Notes: a model not told the origin generated them from the letters alone. Numbered from the stretch's first letter, positions 3,024 through 63,954 are shown. The stretch: DNA of 64,000 nucleotides from Methanobacteriota archaeon (GCA_002710015.1 PAOW01000033.1:8059-72058); one strand, 5' to 3'. Made by a program: numbers and translations.

Positions 3024-3094
3024 ATGATTATTTTTAATGACAAAAGGGCATAAATACCCCGCTCAAGTCGCAAAGCCGCTCAAGGGTTGATAAT

Positions 3095-3574: not shown

Positions 3575-3605
3575 AGCCGCGAGGCTGATCTGAGGTTTTG
3601 GAAGG

Positions 3606-16208: not shown

Positions 16209-16300
16209 ATGCCTATCGTATAGAATGGAACACTTAATTTCTATCGCAATTTTATATCAGTCAAATTTGAATGCTACCGTCTGCTGGGACATCTGTACAC

Positions 16301-31461: not shown

Positions 31462-31474
31462 TACAAATCAATCC

Positions 31475-39312: not shown

Positions 39313-39352
39313 CCCCCGGGGCAAGAGGCTCCCTTTTAACAAACCGGACTGT

Positions 39353-41593: not shown

Positions 41594-41754
41594 CCTACCC
41601 CTTGGAGATTCTCCGCTCATATACATGCGAGAGTGGGTAAGGCTTGAAACTTTGACGGATAATTTCCCTTCGTTTTTACATCAGACTAGAACAATCTATG
41701 ATTTCACAATTCTGAGTGCGTAATGGTCATTAACAAGACACTGAAGCCGTACGT

Positions 41755-47913: not shown

Positions 47914-48573
47914 GTGCGAGAAGTTCAACTCAAGTGGAACCCGAGTTCGGTTGATATTTCAGATATATCCGAAATTACACTAGTAACATCCCTGTTCGAA
48001 GTTGTTGCTCATTTGGAAGTAACCAAGGAAGGAGTAAGACAACTGGTGAAAATAAAATTCAAGCCAGACAAAGGCCCAGACAACCTAAATCAAATCGCTT
48101 ACCTTGAAGTTGAGGGACCTTTGAATCCTTACCCTATGCCTATCCAAGGGGGTGAAGGATACGTCGTGGTATGGAACAGACACCCCCTTTCTGTTGCTGC
48201 AATAAACTTCGACAGTTTACACGTAATCCCTCCGTATGTGATTGATGAAAATGGAGTCCAGATAACAATTCGAGGATTACCCGAGGGTGTGAGTGGATTC
48301 TTAAAAGCCGCCAGGAGTATATTTCCACCAGATAACGTAAAAGTTGTTGATGTAGAGGAAATTGAAGACAGCGTTCTGAAGATACTTACTCCCAAACAAT
48401 TAGAAATCGCTGTCATCGCAGTTCAGTCGGGCTATTACCAAAATCCAAGAAAAATTAGCAAGAAAGAACTCTCAGAACTTTCAAACATACCGCGTTCCAC
48501 GCTTCAAGAACATCTCGCAAAAGCCGAGGCTGCTCTTATGGAATGGGTTGTAAAAGTACACAACTCCAAGTAG
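47914..48573 (+). CDS. HTH_10 (bacterio-opsin-activator-type) transcription regulator
   Basis: 219 aa. C-terminal LTPKQLEIAVIAVQSGYYQNPRKISKKELSELSNIPRSTLQEHLAKAEAAL matches the Bat-type HTH_10. Confidence 0.6.
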   Translation: MREVQLKWNPSSVDISDISEITLVTSLFEVVAHLEVTKEGVRQLVKIKFKPDKGPDNLNQIAYLEVEGPLNPYPMPIQGGEGYVVVWNRHPLSVAAINFDSLHVIPPYVIDENGVQITIRGLPEGVSGFLKAARSIFPPDNVKVVDVEEIEDSVLKILTPKQLEIAVIAVQSGYYQNPRKISKKELSELSNIPRSTLQEHLAKAEAALMEWVVKVHNSK

Positions 48574-48608
48574 TAACCCTTTCTTATAACTCACGTCTAG
48601 GGTTAAAC

Positions 48609-49379
48609 ATGAGGGACATTGACTCTATACTGCCGAACGGCAAAGGAGTTTGGATACCAATTGACCACGCTGTATCGGATTACCCTGTGAACGGACTGGA
48701 AAATCTAGACAAACTGATGGATAAAATCTCCAAGGCAAACGCCATAATCGCACAAAAGGGTGTAATTTCACATTACAACAGAGACGAATTGAATTTAGTC
48801 GCACATCTATCCGCATCAACTCGTCATGCTGGAAATAGAGAATCTGAAAAGGTAATCGTCGGTACAGCCAAAGAAGCAGTTGAAAGAGGTGCAAAGGGCG
48901 TTAGTGTGCAGGTAAATCTTGGTAGCCCTTTCGAACCTGAGATGATTGAGAGATTAGGATTTATCACGGCTGACGCACACGAATTGGGAATCCCAACTCT
49001 TGGTATGATTTATCCAAGAGGCGAGAATCTAAGCATTATTGACGGAGACGACACCAAGGGTGCTGCTCATGCAGCAAGACTGGCATTTGAGCTTGGATGT
49101 AATGTTGTAAAGACAATATGGACTGGATCGGAGGAATCATTCAGGAAAGTAACTGAATCTGTTCCAATTCCTGTTTTGATAGCAGGTGGCCCTAGTGGCT
49201 CTAGCACGGAGGAAATTCTAACAATTGTTTATGATTCAATACAAGCAGGCGGTTCAGGAGTATGTATGGGAAGACAGGTGTTCTCTCACCAATATCCGGA
49301 TAGAATGGTAAATGCCTTGCTGATGATTGTGCATGAAGGGGCTACTGTTAGTCAAGCTATAACAAATTCAGGATTGTGA
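48609..49379 (+). CDS. aroA': 2-amino-3,7-dideoxy-D-threo-hept-6-ulosonate synthase (AroA', DhnA-type class I aldolase family)
   Basis: ORF from 48543; likely start MRDIDSIL after the stop of the upstream gene. Class I aldolase (DhnA) family pattern, immediately upstream of DHQ synthase II. This context favours ADH synthase over FBP aldolase. Confidence 0.6.
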   Translation: MRDIDSILPNGKGVWIPIDHAVSDYPVNGLENLDKLMDKISKANAIIAQKGVISHYNRDELNLVAHLSASTRHAGNRESEKVIVGTAKEAVERGAKGVSVQVNLGSPFEPEMIERLGFITADAHELGIPTLGMIYPRGENLSIIDGDDTKGAAHAARLAFELGCNVVKTIWTGSEESFRKVTESVPIPVLIAGGPSGSSTEEILTIVYDSIQAGGSGVCMGRQVFSHQYPDRMVNALLMIVHEGATVSQAITNSGL

Positions 49380-49383
49380 ATTT

Positions 49384-50358
49384 ATGCAAATATGGTTAGA
49401 TTTTGGTCAAAGATCTAACGGCGTGGATTTAGTCAATGGTGAAGACCTAATCGTAGATGGTGATGCAGTATATATCGATGGTAAAATAGCCGGTAGAAGA
49501 GTTGATGTCAGTGATTCAAAGGGTCAAGCAAGAGCTAGATCAATGGCTGGCAGCCTTGAGTGGATACTACTCGATTTAGGCGATTGGAAAATGATCCCAA
49601 TAGAGAATATAATCGCTGCATGTGACGGAACGCCCACGAAGGTCGCTGCTCGTATATCAACATCAGAACAACTACTGGGTGCTGCATTTGCTTTACAGAT
49701 TGGAGTAGATGCGCTACTTGTACCAGAATCAATACTTGAAAGCGCTTTAATCGCTAAATCTCAACGTTTGGAGAGAACTGAAACTGAGATTTTAAGCGGT
49801 AATCAGCATGACTTTACATTGACTACACTAGAGGTTACAACAGTCACTGAAGGGGGCGTTGGAGATAGGGTATGTGTTGACTTTACAGGCTTATTAAGTG
49901 AAGGAGAAGGCATGTTAGTTGGCTCTAGTTCATCTTCTATGGCATTAGTTCACGGTGAAACCGTGGAATCGGAGTTTGTCCCAACTAGACCATTCAGAGT
50001 AAACGCAGGTGCAGCTCATTCCTACACCTTGATGGCAGATGGTAGCACCAAGTATCTATCTGAATTAAAAATGGGTGATGAAGTGAAAGTTATATCACAG
50101 GATAGTGCTGAACGATTTATGACTGTTGGTCGTGTAAAAATCGAGAAGAGACCATTTATCCTACTCAAGTGGAAAGATGAAAACAATAATCAATCAGGTC
50201 TCTTCCTTCAGCAAGCGGAGACTGTTCGCCTAGTAGGTATTTCTGAAGAACTCATACCTGTCACTAGTATTAACATTGGAATGAAAATTTTGGGTTACAC
50301 AGGAGGAACAGGTAGGCACATTGGTATCCCGATTAATGCAGAAGTGAAAGAGAGGTAG
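49384..50358 (+). CDS. aroB': 3-dehydroquinate synthase II (archaeal AroB')
   Basis: 324 aa. GDRVCVDFTGLL..GEGMLVGSSSSSMALVHGETVESEFVPTRPFRVNAGAAHSY...VGRVKIEKRPFILL is near-collinear with the MJ1249-family DHQ synthase II. Confidence 0.85.
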   Translation: MQIWLDFGQRSNGVDLVNGEDLIVDGDAVYIDGKIAGRRVDVSDSKGQARARSMAGSLEWILLDLGDWKMIPIENIIAACDGTPTKVAARISTSEQLLGAAFALQIGVDALLVPESILESALIAKSQRLERTETEILSGNQHDFTLTTLEVTTVTEGGVGDRVCVDFTGLLSEGEGMLVGSSSSSMALVHGETVESEFVPTRPFRVNAGAAHSYTLMADGSTKYLSELKMGDEVKVISQDSAERFMTVGRVKIEKRPFILLKWKDENNNQSGLFLQQAETVRLVGISEELIPVTSINIGMKILGYTGGTGRHIGIPINAEVKER

Positions 50359-50366
50359 GTGAGCAA

Positions 50367-51245
50367 ATGGCCGTGTTGGGAAATGGTTCTGCAAATGGAG
50401 CATGTAGCCTGCTTCATGCAGCAGGTCTAGGTTATGGAGCCTCCCTAGCACTTGACCTCCAAGTCAAAGTTAGAGTTCTGGACAAACAGCCAAGGAAAGT
50501 ATTAGACGATCCCGACGGTCTTTTGAATGAAGTTGAAACTTCTTGGAAGAATGCGGGACACGATTTTCCCGATCAAGAAATATTTTGGTCAGTAACTTCA
50601 GATATACCTCCTCGCCAAGGCCTGAAATCAAGTTCTGCGGTTGCAGTTGCTGCGATTAGAGCCCTTTGTGATGCAACAAATACAGAACTTAGTAACGGAG
50701 AAATCGTTGACATCGCTGCTGCTGCACAACTTGCTTCAGGTGTATCTATTACTGGTAGTTATGATGATTCATGGGCCGCAATTGAAGGAGGTTGGAAACT
50801 TATCGATATTAGTGCTGAGACTGCTGAACAAGGGCTATTGCTGGAATCTCCCGGGCCAAATTCTGAGGACTGGACTGTGTTAATAGTTCTTCGAGATGAG
50901 AGGCTTGAACGCCCTTCCTTGGAGAGCTTCTCCTATCAGCAACAATCCTTCTCACAAGCACTAACAGCCTTACAGGAAGGAAAAGATTTAGTTGCCTTAA
51001 CATTGAATGGAAGAGGAGTTATCGGAGCTGTAAATGACCCAATAGCAAGAAGGATGACAAATGACGCATTTGTGAATGGGGCAAGAGCCGCAGGAATGAC
51101 GGGTTCAGGTCCTGCAATAGTGATCTTTTTACCCAGTATTAGCCAACAATCCATAGATAGGCTGCGAAATTGGTATGACAGATATGATGGAGTTGAAATA
51201 TTGGAAACGACTGTCATAAATGCAGATTTGGTGTATGAACAATAG
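50367..51245 (+). CDS. aroK: Shikimate kinase, archaeal GHMP-kinase type
   Basis: 292 aa. GHMP motif PRQGLKSSSAVAVAAIRA. Sits between the DHQ synthase II and chorismate synthase genes. Confidence 0.65.
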   Translation: MAVLGNGSANGACSLLHAAGLGYGASLALDLQVKVRVLDKQPRKVLDDPDGLLNEVETSWKNAGHDFPDQEIFWSVTSDIPPRQGLKSSSAVAVAAIRALCDATNTELSNGEIVDIAAAAQLASGVSITGSYDDSWAAIEGGWKLIDISAETAEQGLLLESPGPNSEDWTVLIVLRDERLERPSLESFSYQQQSFSQALTALQEGKDLVALTLNGRGVIGAVNDPIARRMTNDAFVNGARAAGMTGSGPAIVIFLPSISQQSIDRLRNWYDRYDGVEILETTVINADLVYEQ

Positions 51246-51262
51246 TAACCACACATTCTTGA

Positions 51263-52282
51263 ATGGATGGCTGCTCATCCTCTTTGACACCAATGCGTAT
51301 GAGTTTGGGCGAGAATGTAGTCGTTACTCTTTTTGGAGAGTCCCATGGCCTAGCAGTTGGCGCATTAATCGAAGGCATGCCTGCAAATAATGAAATAAAT
51401 TTGGAGCAACTAATAGAAGATATGGTCTCTAGAAGACCAGGCTCTGGGCTGGCGAGTAAGAGGAAAGAAACGGATGATGTTGAGATATTATCTGGTGTCC
51501 ACAAAGGTAAAACAACAGGTATGCCAATATTACTACTGATTAGGAACAAAGATGTTAGATCAAAGGATTATTCATTTCTTCCGTATCAACCTAGACCTGG
51601 CCATGTTGACCACCCTATCAGCGTAAAGAGTGAGGGTGCAGCTGACTTACGAGGAGGCGGATCGTTTTCCGCCAGATTGACCGCAGGTTTGGTTGCAGCA
51701 TCATCAATCTCAAGAGTTGCCATACCTGATGATTGGAAGATTGATGCAACTGTTGGTGCTTTGGGTGGCCTTGAAGGTGATGCTGGAATTGCCCTAGCAG
51801 AGGAAGCGCGCAAAGCTGGAGATTCTTTAGGCAGTAGAGTTGATTTAGTGATTTCCGGGCTCCCTGTTGGATTAGGTGAGCCATGGTTTGACGGAATTGA
51901 ACCAGTACTAGCAAGAGCCCTAATGGCTATACCTGCGGCTAGAGCAGTTGAATTTGGAAGAGGAGTGAATGCCGGACTCATGCGAGGAAGTGAACATAAT
52001 GATACGTGGGGAGAAGATATGTCCCTTGGTGAAGGTGCTGATGGAGCCCTTGGCGGGATGGCAAGTGGAGCACCCATCCATGTGCGAGTTACTTTCAAAC
52101 CTCCAAGCGGTATATCACTACCTCAAGAAACGTTTAATCAAGTCACTGGGATGATTGAAGAACTTGCTATTGAAGGTAGACATGACCCCGTGATTGCACC
52201 ACGTGCTAGACCAGTTGTAGAAGCTGTTGCGAGGTTGGTTCTACTAGATTTAGGCATCCAAGGAGGATACATAGATGAGTGA
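51263..52282 (+). CDS. aroC: Chorismate synthase
   Basis: 339 aa. FGESHG near the N-terminus plus the RPGHxD and RSSARET-like regions. The start may be an internal Met (MRMSLGENV). Confidence 0.8.
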   Translation: MDGCSSSLTPMRMSLGENVVVTLFGESHGLAVGALIEGMPANNEINLEQLIEDMVSRRPGSGLASKRKETDDVEILSGVHKGKTTGMPILLLIRNKDVRSKDYSFLPYQPRPGHVDHPISVKSEGAADLRGGGSFSARLTAGLVAASSISRVAIPDDWKIDATVGALGGLEGDAGIALAEEARKAGDSLGSRVDLVISGLPVGLGEPWFDGIEPVLARALMAIPAARAVEFGRGVNAGLMRGSEHNDTWGEDMSLGEGADGALGGMASGAPIHVRVTFKPPSGISLPQETFNQVTGMIEELAIEGRHDPVIAPRARPVVEAVARLVLLDLGIQGGYIDE

Positions 52283-53519
52283 AATTGTTGTTCACAAATT
52301 TGGTGGTTCATGCTTGAGAGAAAAAGGTGACATAGACAGGATTTACAACATCATCAAGAACACAAAAGAAAGCCCTGTGATAGTAGTCTCAGCAATTTGG
52401 GGTATGACTGACAGGCTGATTCGTGCTGAGAGAGATCCAGCATATGCAGGTAGGTTAGTCCAAGACTTAAGATCTCAACATCTAATCTTTGCACCGGGAC
52501 TCGACAAAGGTGAATTTTCAGATTTATTTGAGAGAGTCATGTCTGGAATTTCTAATAATTTACTAGAATATACTTCTGGAGAAGCATCCTCGCATTGCAA
52601 AAACCTGATTTTAGCCGCCGGTGAAAGGCTCAGTGCATTAGCTGTTGCACACCGACTACGTGAACTAGGACTTGAGAAAGCACAACCAATAGGTGCTGAA
52701 GACGTGGGTCTAAAACTGAAAGGCAAAGGGAGAGCGAAGGAGATTGACATCGAGTTATCCTCAAAACATCTGGATAACAAAAGACTTGTCGGCATTCCAG
52801 TATTAACCGGTTGGTTTGGAGAAGGTGAAGACGGAGATATAGCAGTCTTGTCTAGGGGAGGTTCTGATCACTCAGCTGCCGCCTTCGCAAACTTGCTCAA
52901 TGCAAAAAAACTGATTTTGTGGAAAGATGTAGATGGAATTAAGAGACTAAATCCAAGATGGGGATTAGAAACACCTAGCATTCCGTATTTGAATTATGAA
53001 CAAGCCCTTGAACTATCACTACATGGAACACCTATCATCCACCCTGCTACGGTGATACCACTTGTAGAGATTGGAATTCCAATAGAAGTTCGCAATTTTC
53101 ACAAACCAACAAGTAACACTCCAACCAAGATAGGTCCTGAAGCCGCATCAAGCGGCGTAATTGCGATAGGTTGCTACCCTGGCGTTGCAGTAATAACAAA
53201 TAACAAACAATTGTCCAGTCTACTGTTATCTAAAATTGAGGAGTTCGATGTCTCTCCGTGGTTAATGAAATCAACTCCAGACAGTTTGAAACTGATTATA
53301 CCTACCCATGACTTTGACAGGCTAGAAGAGTTTGTTGAGGGAAAAACCGAATTCAAAACAGCAATTGTCTCAATAATAGGAGATTGTGAGATTCCCAGTG
53401 GATATGAAATAGTCTCTAGCAATGAATATGCTACAAGAGTAATCGTCGAAACAGACAACTTGTCAAAGACTATTGATGAGATATATCACTCTTTATTCTC
53501 TCTCCAAGACTGCAAATGA
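52275..53519 (+). CDS. lysC: Aspartate kinase (amino-acid kinase family with C-terminal ACT-like region)
   Basis: 414 aa. N-terminal VVHKFGGSCL (aspartokinase KFGGTS pattern) and VVVSAIWGMTDRL. Overlaps the aroC stop by 8 nt. Confidence 0.65.
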   Translation: MSEIVVHKFGGSCLREKGDIDRIYNIIKNTKESPVIVVSAIWGMTDRLIRAERDPAYAGRLVQDLRSQHLIFAPGLDKGEFSDLFERVMSGISNNLLEYTSGEASSHCKNLILAAGERLSALAVAHRLRELGLEKAQPIGAEDVGLKLKGKGRAKEIDIELSSKHLDNKRLVGIPVLTGWFGEGEDGDIAVLSRGGSDHSAAAFANLLNAKKLILWKDVDGIKRLNPRWGLETPSIPYLNYEQALELSLHGTPIIHPATVIPLVEIGIPIEVRNFHKPTSNTPTKIGPEAASSGVIAIGCYPGVAVITNNKQLSSLLLSKIEEFDVSPWLMKSTPDSLKLIIPTHDFDRLEEFVEGKTEFKTAIVSIIGDCEIPSGYEIVSSNEYATRVIVETDNLSKTIDEIYHSLFSLQDCK

Positions 53520-54400
53520 GTCGGCAAGTCCAAGGCAAACAAGCCGCCAACGACCAGGAATACAAACAGAGTTCCCAGAGCAACGCCATATACAGAAATC
53601 AGTTCTACGGATTCTTCCATTCTTAGGGCTGTTTGTTCAGAGAACAACGATACTAGCGCTGGTAAGATCGTGTTTACAGAAAGAACGAGCAAAGCTAATC
53701 CACCAGCAATAATGGGGTTTATGACCAAGGAACGATGATATTTCCCGATTATTTTTTTCACATTCATTACGTAAACTTCTCTAGTCCTTATCGAAGTGTC
53801 AAGCATGCTAAATCTCAATACTCCGTTGGACAATTCGAAATACATAACAAGCAAAACTGCATATGTTACAACCAGAATCGTCAGAAGGAATTCACTATCC
53901 CCTAATCCAAAAACATCTTGTGAAAGTGATACCTTTGAGGATGCAAATCTCATTACAGACAATATGAACAGTATGTAAGAGGTTAGCAAATATCTAGCAT
54001 CTCTACTCATTGTACCCCAAAAACCAGTTCCAATAGCTCCAACTACTACGATTAACTGTAGAATGTTTGCAATAGCAATTGAGCCCGTAACTGCATACCA
54101 TAGTGTGCCAACAGCAGGGGTTACAATATATGTCAAGATACCAAGTGCTATTAGAACTCCATAGCAACCTAATTGTAAATTTTGCACCATCTTATCAGCA
54201 GGCAAGAATTTCATTTTAGGTACTAGTGGACCACCGAGTAAACTCTCAACAAAGGAAGGTATCTCTACGGTAGGAATTGCATCCTTTGGAATCTCAGATC
54301 CTCCTGACATCTTTCCTGCCAGTTTCTTTCGAGAGGGTGCTGAAGAGCGCACGGTCTTGCCATCGTATAGGTGGGATGTGTCTCCTGATTTATTTGCCAT
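53486..54400 (-). CDS. Polytopic membrane protein, last gene of MoxR-DUF58 operon
   Basis: 304 aa. A soluble ~60-aa N-terminus followed by about 6 hydrophobic helices. Begins 11 nt downstream of the DUF58 gene. Confidence 0.4.
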   Translation of the reverse strand: MANKSGDTSHLYDGKTVRSSAPSRKKLAGKMSGGSEIPKDAIPTVEIPSFVESLLGGPLVPKMKFLPADKMVQNLQLGCYGVLIALGILTYIVTPAVGTLWYAVTGSIAIANILQLIVVVGAIGTGFWGTMSRDARYLLTSYILFILSVMRFASSKVSLSQDVFGLGDSEFLLTILVVTYAVLLVMYFELSNGVLRFSMLDTSIRTREVYVMNVKKIIGKYHRSLVINPIIAGGLALLVLSVNTILPALVSLFSEQTALRMEESVELISVYGVALGTLFVFLVVGGLFALDLPTHLQSWRENKE

Positions 54401-54410
54401 TATGATACCC

Positions 54411-55724
54411 CTAAAATCCTCTTGCTCCTGCTAGCGCTGTTGAAAGTAGCATGTCTGGTTCCCAATCCATGATATTTACACCAAGTCCTCGTAACTCGCC
54501 TATCAGCACGTCCCTTTCTGTCTTCAACACTTCATATCCAGTTCTATCTAACCTTCTTGCATCGAATTCAAACTCTAGGCTAGAAGGCGATAATACTGTC
54601 ACATCGAAGTCCCTAGCTCTGAAGTCTCTCAGTGCATTGACAACAGTGGGATCATCCTCAAGATTTGATAGAACTATTATCGGGCTACCTTTGTTAATGT
54701 GGGGCAATATTCTGTTTACTACAACCTGAAGTGGAATATTTCCTTTAGCCATAGCCCCAGCTAGTTTTGTCAAAATAACATACAACTGCTTCTTACCTGT
54801 ATCTCTGTCAACACTAACAACCTCATCACCATACGTGATCAATCCAACTGAGTCTCTCCTACCAAGGAAATACTTGGCTAGACTAGCCGCTGCTCTGGTA
54901 GAATAAACCAAGGCATTTCGAGAAACCGGACCTGTCTCAGATACAGCCCTAGAATCTACAATCAATATTATATCGCTAACTGCATCTCTTTCTCTCTCGT
55001 TGACCATCAATCGGCCGCTTCTTGCATATGCTGACCAGTTTATCGCTCGGAAAGAGTCACCATCAAAATATTCTCTAAGCGAATAGAATTCAGAACCTGG
55101 CCCTGGCTGTCTAATGTTTACAGCACCAGTGAATATTTTTGGAACTCTTGATTTGACAAATGTATCTTTCAAATCCTCCATCTTAGGGAAAACTAGGAAA
55201 TCGTTGTAGACATGCAACTCCTTTTCTTTGTGGAAAAGACCGAATGGGTCTTGAACCCTTACAGCCACTGGTCCTAAACTGTAAAACCCTCTTAGAGGAC
55301 ACTCTACTGTATACTCTATGAATGTCTCACGTCTTGGGCCTAATTCCATTAAAATGTAATTTGCTCCTTCTTTTATCCGCATGACTTCAGGAACTCTATC
55401 ACGAACCTCGAGTATTTTTCCAAGAGCAGAGTGATTTTGCATCCTCAATGTAACTGAAACCTCGCCATCTTCAAAAATACGAGCACTAGACAGTTTTCGC
55501 ATTGCAGAGACATTGGAAAGAGATACACCCTCTTCTCCCATCCATTCCTCTGCCCTGCGTCCACTAGCAGCGACGTCAGCATGTCCTCCAAACAATGCAG
55601 CCCATGTTAGGAACACAAAGATCACAACAGCTATGGTTACTAATTGAGAATTTCTCAACGTAAGACCAAGCAAATACATTGCTACGGCTAAAGACCCTAA
55701 CATTGCACTTTTGCGACTCCACAT
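54411..55724 (-). CDS. DUF58-family protein (MoxR partner, vWA-like)
   Basis: 437 aa. N-terminal two TM helices. GPGSEFYSLREYFDGDSFRAINWSAYARSGRLMVNERERD matches the DUF58 core (G.G.eF...ReY..GDd.R.IdW...AR). Confidence 0.7.
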   Translation of the reverse strand: MWSRKSAMLGSLAVAMYLLGLTLRNSQLVTIAVVIFVFLTWAALFGGHADVAASGRRAEEWMGEEGVSLSNVSAMRKLSSARIFEDGEVSVTLRMQNHSALGKILEVRDRVPEVMRIKEGANYILMELGPRRETFIEYTVECPLRGFYSLGPVAVRVQDPFGLFHKEKELHVYNDFLVFPKMEDLKDTFVKSRVPKIFTGAVNIRQPGPGSEFYSLREYFDGDSFRAINWSAYARSGRLMVNERERDAVSDIILIVDSRAVSETGPVSRNALVYSTRAAASLAKYFLGRRDSVGLITYGDEVVSVDRDTGKKQLYVILTKLAGAMAKGNIPLQVVVNRILPHINKGSPIIVLSNLEDDPTVVNALRDFRARDFDVTVLSPSSLEFEFDARRLDRTGYEVLKTERDVLIGELRGLGVNIMDWEPDMLLSTALAGARGF

Positions 55725-55755
55725 ACTACGTCACCTACGGTTATTCAGTGAAATT

Positions 55756-56925
55756 TCAGACCGTTGGAACTGGAACTTCTCGCAAAATCGTCTGTATTAC
55801 TTCACCAGACTCCAATCCTTTGATTTGGTGTTCTGGCTTTAGTATGATTCTGTGTGCTAGTGCAAGTTCTGCTACGGTCTTGATGTCATCGGGTGTTACG
55901 AAATCGCGTCCACGAAGGGCCGCTGCTGCACGAGATGTTTTCAGTAGAGCTTGAGAACCACGAGGGGATGAACCTACCAAAACTCTTGGATCTTCCCTTG
56001 TTCTAGTTACAACCTCAACCATGTACATTCTCAACGCTGGATCGACATAAATGTCTTCACACGCTTGTTGCATGGCTATAACTCTCTGTGGGTCTGTAAT
56101 TACGTCAACATCAACAGCGTCTTTTCCACGGTTGATACGTCGAGCAAGTATCTCGTCCTCATCTGCACGGTCCGGATAACCTACACTCATCTTGAACATG
56201 AACCGGTCCAGCTGTGCTTCAGGTAGGGGATATGTTCCTTCCTGTTCAACAGGGTTTTGTGTTGCCATAACAATAAACGGTGCAGGTAACTTGTGGGTGA
56301 CTGTTCCAATAGTCACCTGCTTCTCCTGCATAGCCTCAAGCAAAGCAGCTTGGGTTTTAGGAGGAGCACGGTTTATTTCGTCAGCAAGTAACAAGTTACA
56401 GAACAATGGTCCTGGCTTGAATGTGAATTCTCCCTTCTTGGCATCGTATATGTTAGTACCAGTAATATCTGCTGGTAGCAAATCCGGAGTGAACTGGACA
56501 CGTTTGAAGTCACATCCAAGTGCGTCTGCAAACGTGTTGGTCATCAGGGTTTTTGCAAGTCCAGGATAATCTTCGAATAACAGGTTTCCGTTAGATAAGA
56601 TATTGATTAATACATTATCTATAACGTGGCTCTTTCCGATAATTACCTTCTGTACTTCAGCGCTTATTGCCTGAGCGATTGCTCCTACTGCTTGTAGGCG
56701 TTCTCTTACCTCAGGGCTACTCTGGTGTCTAGGCTGTGCCTGAACCGGTGCTGGTGCAGCAGGGGCTGGTGCCGGAGCAGCTGGAGCAGGCGCTTGAGGC
56801 GCTGCTGGAGCTGCTGGAGCAGGCGCTTGAGGCGCTGCTGGGGCTGGTGCCGCTGCTGGCATTCCTGCGGGAGCAGGTGGTGCCGGTGCAGGGGGGGCTG
56901 CGGGTGGTGGTGGTGCTGGCTGCAT
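55756..56925 (-). CDS. moxR: MoxR-family AAA+ ATPase with ~65-aa Pro/Ala-rich N-terminal extension
   Basis: 389 aa. Walker A region FEDYPGLAKTLM, Walker B LLADEINRAPPKTQAALLEAMQE, and an overall MoxR layout. The N-terminus MQPAPPPPAAPPAPAPPAPAGMPAAAPAPAAPQAPAPAAPAAPQAPAPAAPAPAPAAPAP is low-complexity. Confidence 0.85.
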   Translation of the reverse strand: MQPAPPPPAAPPAPAPPAPAGMPAAAPAPAAPQAPAPAAPAAPQAPAPAAPAPAPAAPAPVQAQPRHQSSPEVRERLQAVGAIAQAISAEVQKVIIGKSHVIDNVLINILSNGNLLFEDYPGLAKTLMTNTFADALGCDFKRVQFTPDLLPADITGTNIYDAKKGEFTFKPGPLFCNLLLADEINRAPPKTQAALLEAMQEKQVTIGTVTHKLPAPFIVMATQNPVEQEGTYPLPEAQLDRFMFKMSVGYPDRADEDEILARRINRGKDAVDVDVITDPQRVIAMQQACEDIYVDPALRMYMVEVVTRTREDPRVLVGSSPRGSQALLKTSRAAAALRGRDFVTPDDIKTVAELALAHRIILKPEHQIKGLESGEVIQTILREVPVPTV

Positions 56926-56945
56926 GTCTTTTTTACCTCCTTAGT

Positions 56946-58517
56946 TTATTTTCCCCAACGCCGAATTTGTTGCAATAATTGCCTTAATTCTTCGTTGGAA
57001 TATGAACGCTGTTGTGAATATAACAGCTCGATTAGGCGAGGATCTTTTACCATAGATTGGACCTCTCCTGGGGTTTTTCTTATCATCTCGTCACGTGTCA
57101 AATCATTGAACTGACGAACTTTTGCCATTAGTGCTTCTCGCACTCTAGGAATATACTGATTAGGATCGACTTTGTTGGGTCTCTCTCTAAATCTTGTTAA
57201 ATCGAATATGTGTCTCCAGTTTTCCTTTTCAGGGACTACCATGATTGCGATTGATAGTAGAGCGACTAAGTTCAAAATTATTAGCCATTTTAACAGTGTA
57301 TCACTGGTGAGCATTACTATCGCACCAATAGCTTCAGTAAACGGAGAAGATACAGCAGAGGTTACGTGGCGAGATTCGTCAAATACGATGTAGAAATTGC
57401 TATTTTCGCTGGTTATGACAGTAGAAATTTCTTCGTTATCATGCTCCATCATATCTCTAATCATGGTTACGAAGTAATCCTCATTACCATTCCAATTTGT
57501 ATCGCCATCGCTAGAAGATAGTAGTGAATCCCAGCATGCCCTATCACCATAGCTTGCAGAGGAGCATTGTTCCTTACCTGTGACTTCAGCATCAGCCTTA
57601 TCCCACAGATGATTAGCAAAAACTGAATGGTCCGAGATAAATACAATACTTCCTGTTACATCAACTTCTCCTTCACGAATTCCCTTCACTTGATCAACGA
57701 CTTCTATACCTGGGTAGTCCATTCTTACTATCAAACCAGTGTTGTTGCCTCCGAGTACGGGGTTGTTTCTGTTGTTAGGATTGTTATCTTCTCTGGCAAT
57801 AAATGCTGAGCCAGATGCGTGTGCAAGGATTTTGACATTTCTAGAATCCTCAACGTCGTTCTCTAAAACTTGAATTGCTGTTGGCCTGTGGAACAAAACA
57901 GGTAGCGCACAGTCGTCGTATTTGCTACTGTCTTGTAAATCACTGCAATACTCTCGCCTTTCAAATTGATCGTCCCAAACCTTGCTCACACCGGCAACAG
58001 CCCAAATCTTGTGCTGATCGGCAGGTTCAGGTTGACCGGTTTGGCTTTTGACCTCGTAGTATCTGTTTGGATCAACAACTGGAGCATCGAAGAACTTTAC
58101 ATCAAATTCTTCTGCAACTGTTTGAGCATTTGTTGAATTTGCAGCGATTATCACTTTACCTCCTTTTTCAGTAACGAAATCATGGATTGCTTCTGCCTCA
58201 GAACTATCGAAGGGCTTCTCCGGTGCAGCTATGATTAGCATTGTCCTGTGAGGTTCTCTCCAGTCATTTACTAACATAGGAGTTGACATTGTATTAGCAA
58301 CTACGTAGTTCTTACCTTCATCGCCAAGCGAGGCACGCATGGTCGAAATCTGTTGATACTGTAGATTTGTATCAGCGTCTGTAACGTAAGCAGAGTATAC
58401 AGTATCCTTGTCAGCAGAGGTGACTACTATCACTGTAGTAGAAAGTAGCAGTGCTACGATGAATCCCACCAAGAGCCAGGTTTCTAACTTGACCTTAGAT
58501 GGCTCTCCGTCTGTCAT
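56946..58517 (-). CDS. Membrane protein with large extracytoplasmic domain (N-terminal and near-C-terminal TM helices), MoxR operon
   Basis: 523 aa. TM near the N-terminus (WLLVGFIVALLLSTTVIVV) and near the C-terminus (LIILNLVALLSIAIMVV). Possibly DUF4350-like, as is common in MoxR-DUF58 operons; not verified. Confidence 0.4.
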   Translation of the reverse strand: MTDGEPSKVKLETWLLVGFIVALLLSTTVIVVTSADKDTVYSAYVTDADTNLQYQQISTMRASLGDEGKNYVVANTMSTPMLVNDWREPHRTMLIIAAPEKPFDSSEAEAIHDFVTEKGGKVIIAANSTNAQTVAEEFDVKFFDAPVVDPNRYYEVKSQTGQPEPADQHKIWAVAGVSKVWDDQFERREYCSDLQDSSKYDDCALPVLFHRPTAIQVLENDVEDSRNVKILAHASGSAFIAREDNNPNNRNNPVLGGNNTGLIVRMDYPGIEVVDQVKGIREGEVDVTGSIVFISDHSVFANHLWDKADAEVTGKEQCSSASYGDRACWDSLLSSSDGDTNWNGNEDYFVTMIRDMMEHDNEEISTVITSENSNFYIVFDESRHVTSAVSSPFTEAIGAIVMLTSDTLLKWLIILNLVALLSIAIMVVPEKENWRHIFDLTRFRERPNKVDPNQYIPRVREALMAKVRQFNDLTRDEMIRKTPGEVQSMVKDPRLIELLYSQQRSYSNEELRQLLQQIRRWGK

Positions 58518-58668: not shown

Positions 58669-59619
58669 TCATTTTCGCCGGAAAACGGCAGCCAATGTAA
58701 CAATTAGCACACACATTACAGAAGAATTTGCTGATAATGAGTTGTCCTCAACCTCCAATCCTACTGGCTCATTGTCGGGTAATGGCTCCTCATTTTCTTC
58801 CTCGGAATTATCACTTTTCGTGTCTGAATGTCCATCAACATTGAACTCTAGTTCATTGGTGTATGACAGGCCATTACCTTCGCTCGTTACCGTCAATAAG
58901 AATTTACAAATTCTATCTTGGTGATTTGAAGGTGCAGACAGGATTATTGATCCTATTTTCGAGTCTGATATGGTTACGCCTTGCTCAATTCCTGAATCAC
59001 TAGAATCATAATTCATTTGAGGACATCCTCGAAATGACATCGAAACTTTTTGTATTGCATCATCGACATTACCTGAATTCGAAATTTTTACATCGACCCT
59101 CTCGCTTGTTCCAGATTTAATTTCTGGACCTTTTCCGTCTATTAAAGATTGGAATTCTATCTCGAATCCAAATACTGAAGAGAATTGTATTTGTTTCTCG
59201 ATTTCTTTTGAGTCAATTACCTGATCACCCACATCCAAGGTAGCCGTAACTTTGACCACATCAAAGTATGCGCCACTAGCATCGTGAAACACGCCATCCA
59301 ACATTCCAGACCCTGTAATAGTTATTTCAAAGGTCTCATTTGCATTCGCTGCCACGTCGACTTTGCCTGGATCGTCTACTTCAAATCCATCATAAGTCTC
59401 GATTTCGACTTCAAATTCTCCCGGAACTGGACGTGAATTGTCAATCCAGAATTTCAAAACCAAATTGAAGTTTGAAGAACTATCAAGCTCCATAATTGCA
59501 GGTTCGTCTTCCACTTCCCAACCTAAATCCCAGTTAGGTGGCTCGAATTCTGGAAGTTGTGCATCTGCTGCTGGCACTACAAAAGCCAGTAGTAAGAGTG
59601 CGATTACTGCTCGTCTCAC
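58669..59619 (-). CDS. Secreted acidic protein with signal peptide and C-terminal TM anchor, first gene of MoxR operon
   Basis: 316 aa. Signal-like MRRAVIALLLLAFVVPAADA, an acidic beta-rich body, and a C-terminal VMCVLIVTLAAVF anchor. Overlaps the upstream hcrB-like stop by 4 nt. Confidence 0.4.
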   Translation of the reverse strand: MRRAVIALLLLAFVVPAADAQLPEFEPPNWDLGWEVEDEPAIMELDSSSNFNLVLKFWIDNSRPVPGEFEVEIETYDGFEVDDPGKVDVAANANETFEITITGSGMLDGVFHDASGAYFDVVKVTATLDVGDQVIDSKEIEKQIQFSSVFGFEIEFQSLIDGKGPEIKSGTSERVDVKISNSGNVDDAIQKVSMSFRGCPQMNYDSSDSGIEQGVTISDSKIGSIILSAPSNHQDRICKFLLTVTSEGNGLSYTNELEFNVDGHSDTKSDNSEEENEEPLPDNEPVGLEVEDNSLSANSSVMCVLIVTLAAVFRRK

Positions 59620-60569
59620 AATGGGTCCTCACAAGCCCTTTTGACTAAAACCTTTATCATATTTCTTCGATATCTTGGAGGAAGAGCAGTGTTGTTTACC
59701 GGTTTAGTTGTCCTGAATATAGCATCGCAAATCGCCTTCACATCTCCATTTGATTCAGCGACTTCGTCATCGTGCCGTCTGGGGATACTCTCGAGTGCGG
59801 TGGTGGCGACTCTTAGTGTACTTCTATCACCCTTCAACCACGCCGCTGCTGCTCCTGCTTCAGGAAAATCCCACGAGTCTCTAATCCTTAGTTTACGATA
59901 GGCTCCTATCCAATTTTCTATATCTTCAGGCATAGTAACCCTCAGCATGAATTCCCCCGGCTCCAGAACGTTCCTAGTCATTCCATCTAACTTGTAAAAC
60001 TCACTAATAGGGATTTTTCTCTCACCATTAGGCCCTATCAAGTGGACATGAGCATCCAATACCATAAGCGTTGGAGCAACATCGCCTTGATAGGTTGCAA
60101 CACAAAGCTCATTTTGATTTGGTATAACTCTGCAATCAGCTCCAGTACCACAATCACACTTGTGACACCAATCTATGCTACTTCTCCATTCTTCGGTTTG
60201 GTTAAACCAAAAGCAGCGTGTGTCCAAACAAAGGTTTCCTCCAAGTGTGGCGTTTCTTCTAATCAGAGATGATGCCACTTTACTTGCTGCTTCAGCGACC
60301 AGAGGATGGGCTTCACCTGATTCAGCAATGTCGTGAAGTCGCGCCATACAGCCTATTTCTGTCATTGATATCGTTGATAGGCCGTCAATTCCTGCCAAAG
60401 AGATTACATGAGGTTTTGAATTGATGTGCCATTTATAGTTGGGAATCAAATCCGTTCCCCCTGCAATCCAATCAAATTCCTGCCCAGATGCGAGAAGTTT
60501 TGCGGCAATATCACAGGCATCAGAAATGGACTTTGGTCTGTGCAATTCAAATGGAGGCATTAGCATCAT
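59616..60569 (-). CDS. Molybdo-flavoenzyme FAD-binding (medium) subunit with Cys-rich insertion (HcrB-like)
   Basis: 317 aa. CoxM/XdhB-type FAD domain (DWIAGGTDLIP, RNATLGGNL). A ~45-aa insertion, CLDTRCFWFNQTEEWRSSIDWCHKCDCGTGADCRVIPNQNELC (7 Cys), is absent from CoxM/XdhB but characteristic of the 4-hydroxybenzoyl-CoA reductase beta subunit. Confidence 0.7.
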   Translation of the reverse strand: MMLMPPFELHRPKSISDACDIAAKLLASGQEFDWIAGGTDLIPNYKWHINSKPHVISLAGIDGLSTISMTEIGCMARLHDIAESGEAHPLVAEAASKVASSLIRRNATLGGNLCLDTRCFWFNQTEEWRSSIDWCHKCDCGTGADCRVIPNQNELCVATYQGDVAPTLMVLDAHVHLIGPNGERKIPISEFYKLDGMTRNVLEPGEFMLRVTMPEDIENWIGAYRKLRIRDSWDFPEAGAAAAWLKGDRSTLRVATTALESIPRRHDDEVAESNGDVKAICDAIFRTTKPVNNTALPPRYRRNMIKVLVKRACEDPL

Positions 60570-63370
60570 TTACCACTCTCCATATGCCTCTGTTCTTTCT
60601 TCGTCCATGCGGTCCCTGCCAATCCAAGGTTTTCCAGCTGGCTAGCATCTGGCTTGACTGAAATCTTCCATGTCTCATCCTGTTCTTCGGGAGGCAATGT
60701 TGGATCTAGTCCAAACAACACACCATTTAGATATGGTCCTTTATCTTCCATTCTCTGCCTGCGAGAGTCTCTTAACTTGTGTTCATCTGATCTTTCTTCT
60801 AATTTCTCTTGTAGTTCAGAATAATCAAGGGTTGGAACCGGAAGTTCACGCGGATCGTCTATTTTCAGCTTTTTCATTTTCTTAGATATCGCAGCCCAAA
60901 CTTTGTCAGGAGTTAGTGGCAAGTCGTTTATTCTTACACCAATGGCATCATACACTGCATTGACTACCGCAGGAAGAATTGGTAACAGTGGCCCTTCACC
61001 TGCTTCTTTTGCTCCAAACGGACCCTCTGGGTCACAGGATTCAATAATAATCGGAGTTACATTTGGCATCTCATGAACGCTTGGAATCTTATACTCAAGG
61101 AAGTTAGGATTTTGCAAATGGCCAGTTCTTCCATAGACCATTTGTTCAGATAATACCTGACCTAGACCCATGTGGCATGAGCCTATGATTTGCCCCTCTA
61201 CCGCAAGAGGATTCAACGCTTTCCCACAGTCATGAGCAGCCCAAACATTAGTACACTTGATTAACCCTGTATCGACATCAACCTCAACCTCTGCAACATA
61301 GGCAGAGAATGAGTAAGCAGGAGCAAGCCCTGCTGCGGCTCCTTTGTGAATACCTCCCATAGGCGGAGTTCTGTAAGCACCACTTGCAATCAGCGCTCCA
61401 ATGTCTTCCTGAGATTTGTGTAGTGCATCCAGATATGATACGCCGATAGTTGGGTCCCTCTTATTGTAAATTCGTCTGTCGTTTAAGACTAACATTTTTG
61501 GCTCCAAATCTAGCATTTCACCAGCTGCATTGAGCAATTTTTCTCGAATCTCCAAAGCAGCACCAATCGCTGCGTTTGCGTTCATGAAAGTTACTCTAGA
61601 TGAGTATGAACCCAAATCCACGGGGCTGGTATCACTCTCATGAGATCTTACATGGACCATTTCAAGAGGGAGGGCTAGAACCTCAGCGACAACTTGAGCT
61701 ACTGCTGTGGAGGACCCCTGTCCAATATCAGCAGCCCCTGTGTGTACTGTCACCCCTCCATCCATATCTATTTGCAAGTGAACGGTAGCGTGAGGGAAAT
61801 TATGGGGGTCCCAATGAATCGGTAAACCTGAGCCTGAAATGAAAAAGCCACAACCTATTCCAATACCTTTGCCAAGTGGTAATTTTCGGAATTTTTCTGT
61901 CCAGTTGCTTCCTTCTCTTACTCTTTCTAGAGCCTGCCTCATTCCATTGGAAGTAATCCTAAATCCGGTTATGGTTTTGGAATGGGGTGGAAGCAAATTT
62001 GCCAATCGCAGGTCGATAGGGTCAACTTGGAGTTTCTCAGCAATATCATCTAACCCTACTTCTATTGCACACCTAGTATTCACAGCACCATGGCCTCTCA
62101 TAGCCCCACTTGCTGGCTTATTAGTCCAAACTCTTGCACCAGTGTAGTGAAATGATCCTAGTTCATAGGGCGCAGTCGCCAATACACCGTTGTAATATGA
62201 TGTGACGTGACCAAATGACGCAAAGCCACCTCCATCTATTAGTGCATCAATCTCAAATCCAGAAATTTTAGCGTCCTCGTTGGCATTTATTTTGACCTCG
62301 ATATGAGATGGGTGTCTTCCACGGTTGACCCAAAACACCTCCTCCCTGTCAAATGTTATTCTAACAGGCCTTCCAGCCTTTCGGGCTAATATAGCCGCAC
62401 ACATTTCATGAGGAAATGGATCTGATTTTCCTCCAAACCCTCCCCCGACGAATGTTCGTATGACATTTATCTGGTGCATAGGAACCTCAAGGACAGTAGC
62501 AAGTGCTCGGTGTGCGTAATGAGGCACCTGTTGTGGCGTGTATAATTGTAATCGGCCATTAGGATCCCAATGAGCAACCACTGCATGGGGTTCAGTAAAA
62601 CCGTGATTTACACCCATAAATTTCCATTTCCCATTGTGGAAAGCCTTGGTTGTGTTTTCTAGACTCTCCCTATCTCCAAACTCTTGAAAAACTCGTTTTT
62701 GAACATTGGTTGAGCCTATGTGATAAGGGCCACGCCAGTGGATTGGCTCGTCAACGTCCAGGAGACCCTTCTTTGGGTCATGTACAGCATCTAACACATC
62801 GTATTCTACTTCAATTAGAGTTACTGCTTGACGGGCTGTTTCTTCATCAACGGCTGCGACGCAGGCAACCAAATCACCAACATGTCTTACCTTTTCAACA
62901 GCCATTGCATGTTCATCTTTTGTAACAGGTAAAACTCCAAACTTACTAGGCGCGTCAACCCCGGTAGAAACTGCGATTACACCGGGTAGTTCTTCGGCCT
63001 TAGAGGTATCAACACTCTTCACTTTAGCATAATGATAAGGGGACCTCACAATTCTTCCAATCAACTCATTTGGCAGCCTTATATCATCGCCATACCAAGC
63101 TTGTCCAGTTACTTTTGCATTTGCATCTACAAGCGGTGTTCTTTTTCCAACAGTCGTTCCAGTTCTGTAACTATCTTGGAAATGACCACCAGCAGGCTGA
63201 GCTTCATTTCCGCCTTCTAATTCAGGGATGAATTCAAGGTCTCTTTCAGCCATTTTTGGTCTCGAACCTCCAGACCCGGGAGGGTTAAATCGCATCTTAC
63301 CAGCAACTCTTTTGCCATCTACGCGAACTTCTTTGCTCATGCCAGCCTGCTGAACGTAATCTTTACTCAT
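60566..63370 (-). CDS. Molybdopterin-binding large subunit of xanthine-dehydrogenase-family enzyme, with N- and C-terminal extensions
   Basis: 934 aa. Contains GGGFGGK, GHGAVNTRCAIE, and TGAADIGQGSSTAVAQVVAEVL (MoCo dimerisation region). About 60 aa N-terminal and about 120 aa C-terminal charged extensions lie beyond the typical ~780 aa. Confidence 0.85.
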   Translation of the reverse strand: MSKDYVQQAGMSKEVRVDGKRVAGKMRFNPPGSGGSRPKMAERDLEFIPELEGGNEAQPAGGHFQDSYRTGTTVGKRTPLVDANAKVTGQAWYGDDIRLPNELIGRIVRSPYHYAKVKSVDTSKAEELPGVIAVSTGVDAPSKFGVLPVTKDEHAMAVEKVRHVGDLVACVAAVDEETARQAVTLIEVEYDVLDAVHDPKKGLLDVDEPIHWRGPYHIGSTNVQKRVFQEFGDRESLENTTKAFHNGKWKFMGVNHGFTEPHAVVAHWDPNGRLQLYTPQQVPHYAHRALATVLEVPMHQINVIRTFVGGGFGGKSDPFPHEMCAAILARKAGRPVRITFDREEVFWVNRGRHPSHIEVKINANEDAKISGFEIDALIDGGGFASFGHVTSYYNGVLATAPYELGSFHYTGARVWTNKPASGAMRGHGAVNTRCAIEVGLDDIAEKLQVDPIDLRLANLLPPHSKTITGFRITSNGMRQALERVREGSNWTEKFRKLPLGKGIGIGCGFFISGSGLPIHWDPHNFPHATVHLQIDMDGGVTVHTGAADIGQGSSTAVAQVVAEVLALPLEMVHVRSHESDTSPVDLGSYSSRVTFMNANAAIGAALEIREKLLNAAGEMLDLEPKMLVLNDRRIYNKRDPTIGVSYLDALHKSQEDIGALIASGAYRTPPMGGIHKGAAAGLAPAYSFSAYVAEVEVDVDTGLIKCTNVWAAHDCGKALNPLAVEGQIIGSCHMGLGQVLSEQMVYGRTGHLQNPNFLEYKIPSVHEMPNVTPIIIESCDPEGPFGAKEAGEGPLLPILPAVVNAVYDAIGVRINDLPLTPDKVWAAISKKMKKLKIDDPRELPVPTLDYSELQEKLEERSDEHKLRDSRRQRMEDKGPYLNGVLFGLDPTLPPEEQDETWKISVKPDASQLENLGLAGTAWTKKEQRHMESGK

Positions 63371-63378
63371 GCTGACAC

Positions 63379-63954
63379 CTAGATTTCAGGGCCACTAGGA
63401 TGTGGATCGGAATGGGCTGCATTGTTTGAAGCGACCGCTTCTGCATCACCTCTGTGAATGGCTGCTGCAGCTTGTATTGATTGGATTATTTGCTGGTATC
63501 CAGTGCATCTGCAAAGGTTACCTTCAATTGCGCATGCAATTTCTTTTTCACTAGGGTCAGGGTTTTTGTCTAAAAGTGCCTGGGAAGCAACCAAAAAACC
63601 AGGTGTGCAGAAACCACATTGTGACCCTCCATAATCTGCAAAGCATTGTTGGATAGGCGCTAGATGGGATCCATCAGATAGCCCTTCAACAGTTGTAATT
63701 TTACAACCGCTCACGTCATGTGCCATAGTTAGACAAGAAAGGCGTGGCTCACCATCTATCATGACCGTACAACAGCCACATGTCCCCATGTCGCATCCGC
63801 GTTTAACACCCAAGCATCCTGCTTTGTCGCGGAGAACGTCAAGAAGTATCGAATTTGATTTTGCTATAACCTCTTTTTTCTGTCCGTTGACTTCCCCGAA
63901 CCATATTTCAGATGGTGCAGCAGGAATCATCGAGACAAAGTCTTCGCCGACCAT
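63379..63954 (-). CDS. [2Fe-2S] small subunit of molybdo-flavoenzyme (CoxS/HcrC-like)
   Basis: 191 aa. Plant-type ferredoxin motif CDMGTCGCCTV and second cluster CGFCTPGF...CRCTGY. Confidence 0.85.
   Translation of the reverse strand: MVGEDFVSMIPAAPSEIWFGEVNGQKKEVIAKSNSILLDVLRDKAGCLGVKRGCDMGTCGCCTVMIDGEPRLSCLTMAHDVSGCKITTVEGLSDGSHLAPIQQCFADYGGSQCGFCTPGFLVASQALLDKNPDPSEKEIACAIEGNLCRCTGYQQIIQSIQAAAAIHRGDAEAVASNNAAHSDPHPSGPEI

Follow-up and report, generated by a model that had tools for sequence, protein, structure and literature searches.

4-Hydroxybenzoyl-coenzyme A (CoA) reductase (4-HBCR), encoded by hcrCAB in Thauera aromatica (PDB 1RM6) and known as HbaBCD in Rhodopseudomonas palustris, uses low-potential electrons to strip phenolic hydroxyls from the CoA esters of aromatic acids. 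It belongs to the xanthine oxidase family, a group of molybdenum (Mo) hydroxylases, in which the urolithin C dehydroxylase UcdCFO of Enterocloster also removes a phenolic OH reductively (PMC11760930); dehydroxylation in this family is therefore not confined to 4-HBCR. UcdCFO, set apart here by its published description only, has a flavin adenine dinucleotide (FAD) subunit without a [4Fe-4S] loop, and supplementation with reduced nicotinamide adenine dinucleotide (NADH) raises the activity of lysates (PMC11760930). Two further members of the family, PaoABC of E. coli (5G5G) and the Methylobacillus aldehyde oxidase (5Y6Q), have a four-Cys loop in the FAD subunit, and a [4Fe-4S] cluster in the FAD subunit of PaoABC has been described (bioRxiv 10.64898/2026.07.15.738685). 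The subject here is a three-gene Mo enzyme operon, at 59616..63954 on the minus strand of a 64,000-nucleotide stretch labelled as from a Methanobacteriota archaeon (GCA_002710015.1 PAOW01000033.1:8059-72058; the window is this whole stretch). The host is a Poseidoniales (Marine Group II) archaeon. Judged from its sequence, the locus encodes an enzyme of the 4-HBCR-like (HcrCAB-like) clade, and not 4-HBCR sensu stricto.

The order of the genes is small, large, medium, as given in a preliminary description of the window, and the open reading frames (ORFs) lie exactly at the coordinates proposed there, all on the minus strand. The small (gamma, HcrC-like) subunit has 191 aa (63379..63954), as identified from the ORF and its Pfam and NCBIfam matches. 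It is followed by the large (alpha, HcrA-like) molybdopterin-cofactor subunit of 934 aa (60566..63370), the core of which is residues 73–829, and by the medium (beta, HcrB-like) FAD subunit of 317 aa (59616..60569), assigned through Pfam, NCBIfam, PDB and Foldseek. The small-subunit stop is separated by 8 nt from the ATG of the large-subunit gene, which has GGTG immediately upstream, and the large and medium genes share a 4-nt overlap. Thauera HcrCAB has this same subunit order, as do nearly all of the clade relatives that were examined; in the relative P0123 a fusion joins the small subunit to the large one. In two bacterial loci the large- and FAD-subunit genes are separated by small unrelated genes, these being a lipoprotein-like 141-aa ORF in L081 (8050-8475, plus strand) and a nitroreductase with a SPOR-domain protein in L085 (10522-11730, plus strand).

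Pfam E-values over the three subunits range from 1e-28 to 1e-72, so the domain assignment is far above chance. The small subunit matches Fer2_2 (1.3e-29), Fer2 and Fer2_3 and has two [2Fe-2S] binding motifs, GCDMGTCGCC...SC and QCGFCTPG...CRCTGY, with no twin-arginine signal at its N-terminus. The large subunit matches Ald_Xan_dh_C, MoCoBD_1 and MoCoBD_2. The medium subunit matches FAD_binding_5 (1.3e-32) and contains the FAD motifs AGGTDL and TLGGNL. The domain set of the xanthine oxidase family, together with its active-site Gln and Glu, is complete.

Within the family, the best match of each subunit is to 4-HBCR. The best NCBIfam models are TIGR03193 (4-HBCR gamma) for the small subunit, at 182.9 bits (cutoff 257.8), TIGR03194 for the large subunit, at 797.9 bits (cutoff 994.55), and TIGR03195 for the medium subunit, at 236.3 bits (cutoff 404.55). 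Against PDB sequences, the large subunit matches 1RM6_A with 624 bits over residues 73–829, the next chain, a CoxL, reaching 276 bits, and the FAD subunit matches 1rm6_B with 187 bits and PaoB with 85. Foldseek ranks 1rm6_B first for the AlphaFold2 model of the FAD subunit (E 9e-20). Identity to the Thauera proteins is 43% for alpha (blastp) and 39% for beta. The likeness to HcrCAB put forward in the preliminary description therefore stands as far as best matches, gene order and the loop of the FAD subunit are concerned, but equivalogy to Thauera HcrCAB does not, given scores below the cutoffs.

A canonical xanthine/purine dehydrogenase (Xdh) or aerobic CO dehydrogenase (CODH), misread through family similarity, is highly improbable. 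Some orthologues are named 'xanthine dehydrogenase family protein', XdhC is nearby in related loci, and XdhA models are the second-best NCBIfam matches of the large subunit, at 518–529 bits. However, the Xdh and CODH models score far under their own cutoffs and under the 4-HBCR model (NF043082 529/780 for Xdh; TIGR02416 292/991 for CODH). Glu802 and Arg880 of bovine xanthine dehydrogenase, the purine-binding residues, are replaced by S316 and Y393 in the window protein, a mapping made from the bovine motifs. GAMRGHG takes the place of the CODH active-site loop (VAYRCSFR type; GGVAYACSFR in CoxL), the gene order is not medium-small-large, and the FAD subunit has a Cys loop, which CoxM and XdhB are without. 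The large subunit is set apart from CoxL and XdhA, the grouping that the preliminary description had named as the alternative, by the PDB scores (624 against 276 bits), by the NCBIfam scores (798 with TIGR03194, 529 with the highest-scoring Xdh model) and by its place in an HcrA-containing clade. Xdh, CODH and PaoABC were all rejected as identities on scores, motifs and gene order.

The Cys-rich insertion of the FAD subunit, a putative [4Fe-4S] loop, spans residues 112–160 (60090..60236, minus strand) in the alignment to 1rm6_B. The FAD_binding_5 match extends over protein residues 6–215, that is 210 residues against 168 profile positions, which gives an insertion of ~42 residues; the preliminary description had estimated ~45 and had counted seven Cys, and seven are present (C114, C119, C135, C138, C140, C146 and C156). 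Thauera HcrB residues 3–315, rebuilt from the printed alignment and of the expected length, contain five Cys (117, 122, 138, 146 and 155). The insertion aligns directly with the loop of HcrB, as had been suspected, and has Cys at all five of the equivalent positions: C119/C135/C146/C156 align with Thauera C122/C138/C146/C155, and C114 aligns with C117. The four Thauera residues C122/C138/C146/C155 are reportedly the [4Fe-4S] ligands in the structure (Unciuleac et al. 2004). The spacing is C-x15-C-x10-C-x9-C in the window protein and C-x15-C-x7-C-x8-C in Thauera, the difference being a 3-residue insert bearing C138 and C140, plus one more residue.

Conservation of these residues in orthologues, which the earlier proposal depended on, is high. 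Six of the loop Cys (C114, C119, C135, C140, C146 and C156) do not vary among 19 Poseidoniales sequences, and C138 is the sole variable one (C, A or E); the invariant C140 has no counterpart in Thauera. Nine relatives within the clade also have the four loop Cys in their FAD subunits, eight of these relatives being more distant and one being a true HcrA. In these nine the C117-equivalent position is not conserved, which independently supports the assignment of the other four as ligands. No loop at all is present in the FAD subunit that adjoins P0128, a relative placed just beyond the clade. We infer from the sequence that a [4Fe-4S] cluster is present on the loop. In the AlphaFold2 model of the FAD subunit the loop residues 112–160 have a predicted local distance difference test score (pLDDT) of ~30, as expected since the cofactor is absent from AlphaFold2 and the alignment was shallow. 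The preliminary description had regarded the insertion as a hallmark of 4-HBCR. It is at the same place as in Thauera and has the same four Cys, but it is not exclusive to that enzyme, as the alignments of PaoB and of the 5Y6Q aldehyde oxidase also run through the loop.

The Mo centre of the large subunit retains the residues typical of the family. Q281, R425/H427 (in GAMRGHG) and E792 correspond in Thauera to Q214, the RGHG motif and E726, and all four are invariant in alignment A2, true HcrA included. The Gln and Glu that the preliminary description had singled out for inspection are therefore retained, along with GAMRGHG and GSYSSR, the latter within a GSYSSRVTFM segment conserved with Thauera. 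The pocket helix also stays aromatic, Thauera Y316/Y319/Y326 becoming F383/F386/Y393.

Divergence from true HcrA is nevertheless considerable. True HcrA is represented by 120 sequences, the nearest database relatives of the Thauera protein. They belong to Alpha-, Beta- and Gammaproteobacteria and to Actinomycetota, and each shares at least 74% identity with Thauera HcrA. There are 349 columns that are at least 97% invariant in this set. The Poseidoniales sequences keep 195 of these and do not keep 154, and in 112 columns each group has a fixed residue of its own. Several of the fixed differences are in segments around the Mo centre, where GGGFG-ARTE has become GGGFG-GKSD. Also in these segments, in Thauera numbering, are Y316F, Y319F, I321H, L325Y, H443F, K452I, V648H and V650C, with S725G adjoining the catalytic Glu.

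A HMMER scan over 1.84 billion cluster representatives found the closest full-length relative to be P0121, a bacterial protein of 55% identity, with approximately ten clusters outranking the Thauera-type cluster. Thauera HcrA is itself 61% identical to P0136, the true-HcrA representative, and 43% identical to the window protein. The TIGR03194 cutoff is passed by P0136 only (1302 bits), while P0121–P0129 score 773–960. In a neighbour-joining tree (147 sequences, 699 columns, CoxL root) the window protein and the other Poseidoniales sequences group with P0121 (bootstrap 84), then with P0122 and then with P0123. These are part of a 19-member clade (bootstrap 67) that includes the pair of Thauera HcrA and P0136 (bootstrap 100).

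The neighbourhoods of these relatives are informative in several cases. P0122 (L082/L083) is situated between a BcrA-like gene (575 bits, cutoff 578) and a fusion of BcrD and CoA ligase (325 bits, above the cutoff of 313), with a thiolase and a short-chain dehydrogenase/reductase (SDR) in the same neighbourhood. The fusion, at 1929-4565 on the plus strand of L082, is an 878-aa protein of an uncultured anaerobe in which a benzoyl-CoA reductase subunit D-like ATPase is joined to an AMP-binding acyl-CoA ligase domain. P0123 (L088) adjoins BcrB (617 bits, above 487) and BcrC (432 bits, above 421). P0125 adjoins BcrAD-type ATPases, an acyl-CoA dehydrogenase and a 2-oxoacid:ferredoxin oxidoreductase, and P0130 adjoins a PaaK-like ligase and a ferredoxin-domain 2-oxoacid oxidoreductase. 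The neighbourhoods of P0121, P0124, P0126 and P0133 are uninformative.

P0122 and P0123, both from uncultured anaerobes and beside genes for class I benzoyl-CoA reductase, are 49–50% identical to the window large subunit, are next-nearest to it in the tree and have the four-Cys loop in their FAD subunits. They have nearly the same motifs at the Mo site, those in common being GGGFGGKSDPF.HE, GAMRGHG, G.GF.ISGS.LPI, AHDCG and GEG. At the 112 discriminating positions P0122 has the Poseidoniales state in 52 and the HcrA state in 24, and P0123 in 53 and 26 respectively. Unlike the window enzyme, they are part of Bcr/thiolase/SDR operons and are without the terminal extensions of the Poseidoniales proteins. 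Given the neighbourhoods of the relatives and the residues that are shared with them, the Poseidoniales branch has on either side of it enzymes connected with aryl-CoA metabolism and with ferredoxin of low potential.

The large subunit is extended at both ends compared to Thauera HcrA, by ~72 residues at the N-terminus and ~105 at the C-terminus, the match spanning query residues 73–829. The preliminary description had called these extensions unusual and charged, and both are conserved across the Poseidoniales. The N-terminal extension (residues 1–72; 63155..63370, minus strand) has the motif DGKRVAGK..F.PPGSGGSRP.M..RD.DFIPE..GG.E.QPAG. The C-terminal extension (residues 830–934; 60569..60883, minus strand) is charged, has the motifs RRQR.ED..(P/A)Y.NGVLFG.DP and LGLAG.AW.K.EQR.M, and continues to the stop codon, which overlaps the start of the medium subunit. 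Over 80 related loci the majority-residue frequency is 0.83–0.87 in the N-terminal extension and 0.65–0.83 in the C-terminal one, against 0.93 in the core. When modelled by AlphaFold2 with an alignment covering the extensions, residues 41–72 have pLDDT 80–89 and residues 831–930 have pLDDT 81–97, with a helix at 853–872; residues 1–33, at pLDDT <50, are the sole part that appears disordered.

Neither extension has a match in the Pfam scan, and the C-terminal extension alone has none at E<=10 against PDB sequences. Among the 150 nearest cluster representatives none aligns past approximately residue 840. The N-terminal extension is missing from the full-length 50%-cluster representatives and, among representatives outside the Poseidoniales clusters, is carried by the truncated fragment P0156 only, a cut-off gene on a 4.9-kb contig of uninformative context. 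Being conserved, predicted to be ordered, without Pfam or PDB match and not aligned in the 150 nearest representatives, the extensions are a real lineage-specific structural addition. They possibly contact other subunits or a partner. The 141-aa ORF of L081 was considered as a free-standing homologue of the C-terminal extension and was rejected, as it has a lipoprotein-like signal (MALVGTALLMAAC) and has no similarity visible on inspection.

A search for the large subunit in species-representative genomes found 484 stretches with a relative, and the comparisons of loci made here are of the best 80 of these. Among these 80 species-level loci the large subunit is 78–95% identical, so it is strongly constrained. 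The metagenome-assembled genomes (MAGs) concerned are, in all but two cases, labelled Poseidoniales, Poseidoniaceae, Thalassarchaeaceae, Thermoplasmatota, Methanobacteriota, Euryarchaeota or euryarchaeote. The two others, L059 and L068, are labelled as bacteria ('uncultured Rhodobiaceae bacterium' and 'Salipiger bermudensis'), with a Poseidoniales-type operon at 80% identity and full Poseidoniales synteny; these labels are probably the result of binning contamination. In orthologues of 70–72% identity, one of them named Thalassarchaeaceae, the length of the large subunit is unchanged. The enzyme is real, is present across the order in both named families, and is a lineage-specific variant of a known enzyme type.

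Its nearest non-archaeal relative is the bacterial P0121, which could be read as the sign of an hcr operon acquired horizontally from bacteria and now present as a decaying or non-functional relic. The reading frames are, however, intact and translationally coupled, the cofactor motifs are all invariant, and the GC content of the operon is the same as in the rest of the window. With the identity and full synteny of the 80 loci, and the 484 stretches with a relative, the conservation data effectively refute this reading.

The window carries CtaA (38263-39366), a UbiA/CtaB-family gene (37191-38288) and a tryptophan 2,3-dioxygenase (40538-41626, minus strand), from which it follows that the host uses O2; the aerobic lifestyle presumed in the preliminary description is borne out by these genes. 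Near CtaA and the UbiA/CtaB-family gene, the tryptophan 2,3-dioxygenase, together with an FAD_binding_2 flavoprotein of the L-aspartate oxidase or SdhA type at 16271-17881, may point to an O2-dependent kynurenine route.

In terms of function, the likeliest reading, to which we give an even chance, is that the enzyme is a reductive dehydroxylase of a hydroxyaryl-CoA and is fed by ferredoxin. It would be a cytoplasmic heterotrimer with Mo-pterin, two [2Fe-2S] clusters and FAD, plus a [4Fe-4S] cluster on the loop of the FAD subunit. A low-potential ferredoxin would deliver single electrons to this surface [4Fe-4S] cluster, from where FAD and the two [2Fe-2S] clusters would relay them to the Mo centre. 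At that centre the substrate, an aromatic acyl-CoA with a para-hydroxyl (4-hydroxybenzoyl-CoA or a close analogue), would lose its phenolic OH as water. The direction of electron flow, the ferredoxin partner, the CoA-ester substrate and the reductive chemistry are all features that we infer. Ferredoxin is plausible as the donor, since aerobic archaea generally produce reduced ferredoxin through 2-oxoacid oxidoreductases.

A number of observations weigh against this function. The large subunit is only 43% identical to Thauera HcrA, and each subunit is under its NCBIfam 4-HBCR equivalog cutoff, P0136 scoring 1301.7 with the large-subunit model. The 154 invariant columns of true HcrA that are not kept and the 112 that are fixed differently, several of them around the Mo centre, are to be counted here. 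The tree is distance-based, its outer clade is moderately supported and the boundary of this clade is soft, and P0121, the closest relative, is in an uninformative context. The host respires O2, and we know of no benzoyl-CoA route in it. Genes for a CoA ligase, for benzoyl-CoA reductase, for a ferredoxin or for ferredoxin-regenerating enzymes, and Box genes, are missing from the 64-kb window and from the 80 syntenic loci. This last absence is weak evidence, because the true hcrCAB locus L089, of the order small-large-medium, is also without such genes within 10 kb and is flanked by MarR and XdhC only. The window operon has neither of these two directly at its sides; the XdhC Mo-cofactor chaperone is ~8 kb upstream of the operon in related loci, which favours the reductive function.

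The same cofactors could instead be used oxidatively, by a Mo hydroxylase or aldehyde oxidoreductase with an aryl-CoA, an N-heterocycle or an aldehyde of an aromatic compound as its substrate. Electrons would then pass from Mo through [2Fe-2S] and FAD and leave by the [4Fe-4S] cluster to ferredoxin or another carrier, as has been proposed for enzymes of the PaoABC type. This is the chief alternative, though somewhat unlikely. The four-Cys loops of PaoB (5G5G) and 5Y6Q_B, both from oxidative aldehyde oxidoreductases, the aerobic host, the lack of benzoyl-CoA pathway context in the window and in the syntenic loci, and the presence of the Glu that is the typical general base of hydroxylases (E792) with Q281 are all in agreement with it, and the scores under the cutoffs and the 112 fixed differences leave room for another reaction. 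The source annotations of some orthologues are likewise 'aldehyde oxidase' or 'xanthine dehydrogenase family protein'. On the other side, PaoB and PaoC are far more distant than HcrB and HcrA (85 against 187 bits and 213 against 624 bits), and the NCBIfam models for PaoA (NF008514, 114/322) and PaoC (NF041671, 292/1180) are far under cutoff. PaoABC is a periplasmic enzyme with an export signal on PaoA, whereas the small subunit here has no export signal, and the gene order is not that of Pao. Of the nearest relatives, those in an informative context are tied to benzoyl-CoA reductase and to enzymes that reduce ferredoxin, and not to aldehyde metabolism.

If the enzyme is a ferredoxin-fed reductase, a further and more speculative suggestion can be made, which is to be seen as tentative and rather doubtful. 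Poseidoniales may dehydroxylate phenolic acyl-CoA esters from algal or terrestrial dissolved organic matter by means of ferredoxin and without a benzoyl-CoA reductase, the extensions and the extra loop Cys being adaptations, for example to oxygen tolerance or to the docking of an archaeal ferredoxin. Such a reaction is known from the breakdown of aromatics by anaerobes. In the plankton of the oxic ocean, few archaea are as abundant as the Poseidoniales. Marine Group II is uncultivated, and which dissolved organic compounds it consumes is a long-standing question. The enzyme is costly in cofactors, with Mo, FAD and three Fe-S clusters if the putative [4Fe-4S] cluster is included. Should it have the chemistry of its closest characterised relative, Marine Group II would be tied to phenolic-acid turnover in oxic ocean water, with an 'anaerobic' type of reaction working in an aerobe. 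Should the chemistry differ, the enzyme would represent a new substrate class for the [4Fe-4S]-bearing Mo hydroxylases.

Literature searches on Marine Group II or Poseidoniales with 4-HBCR, benzoyl-CoA, benzoate or molybdopterin found no discussion of the enzyme in the library searched; a transcriptome paper on Marine Group II mentions, of this topic, only a putative xdhC/yagS in MGIIb. The cofactor architecture and the 4-HBCR label of some orthologues are known, and what is new is the distinct branch, the conserved extra segments, the extra loop Cys and the unexpected host. Caution is needed in annotation, as the labels of public orthologues conflict ('4-hydroxybenzoyl-CoA reductase', 'aldehyde oxidase' and 'xanthine dehydrogenase family protein') and no subunit reaches its curated equivalog threshold.

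A fourth ORF follows the three subunit genes on the same strand (58669..59619), its start overlapping the medium-subunit stop by 4 nt. Its 316-aa product has an N-terminal signal peptide and is anchored in the membrane at its C-terminus. The transcription unit probably consists of the small, large and medium subunits and this secreted protein. The position of the 316-aa protein is constant in every locus that reaches that far, with an identity of 22–47% compared to 59–100% for its neighbours, and it has no match in the Pfam scan. A fast-evolving surface protein is a surprising candidate for co-transcription with a cytoplasmic Mo enzyme.

Synteny around the operon is alike in all 80 loci, with XdhC, RNase T, a large membrane protein, a subtilase and an acyltransferase upstream and DUF4350, MoxR, DUF58, a membrane protein and aspartate kinase downstream. 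In the window the cluster of DUF4350, MoxR AAA+, DUF58 and membrane protein is directly downstream, at 53486-58517 on the minus strand. MoxR and DUF58 are 87–100% identical across loci, leaving out matches cut by contig ends, and are above the Mo enzyme in conservation. The MoxR protein has an N-terminal tail of ~65 aa that is Pro/Ala-rich and of low complexity. These genes were considered as maturation factors like CoxD and CoxE; they are missing from the loci of all the relatives and are separated from the operon by a 151-nt AT-rich gap after the 316-aa ORF, and the idea was rejected. The DUF4350-MoxR-DUF58 genes are treated as an unrelated neighbouring unit.

The remaining genes of the window are archaeal housekeeping genes. 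On the opposite strand, ~7 kb from the Mo enzyme, are four archaeal-type genes of the shikimate pathway of aromatic amino-acid biosynthesis. Together with the preceding gene for an HTH_10 regulator they occupy 47914-52282 (plus strand), and their products are a DeoC-family aldolase, 3-dehydroquinate synthase II, a GHMP kinase and chorismate synthase. Three adjacent genes for KaiC/RecA-superfamily ATPases (267, 197 and 266 aa) are located at 30658-32861 on the minus strand. Large ORFs without a Pfam match at E<=1e-4 are present at 34100-37051 (plus strand, 983 aa), 18767-21193 (minus strand, 808 aa), 6545-8116 (minus strand, 523 aa) and 5520-6572 (minus strand, 350 aa).

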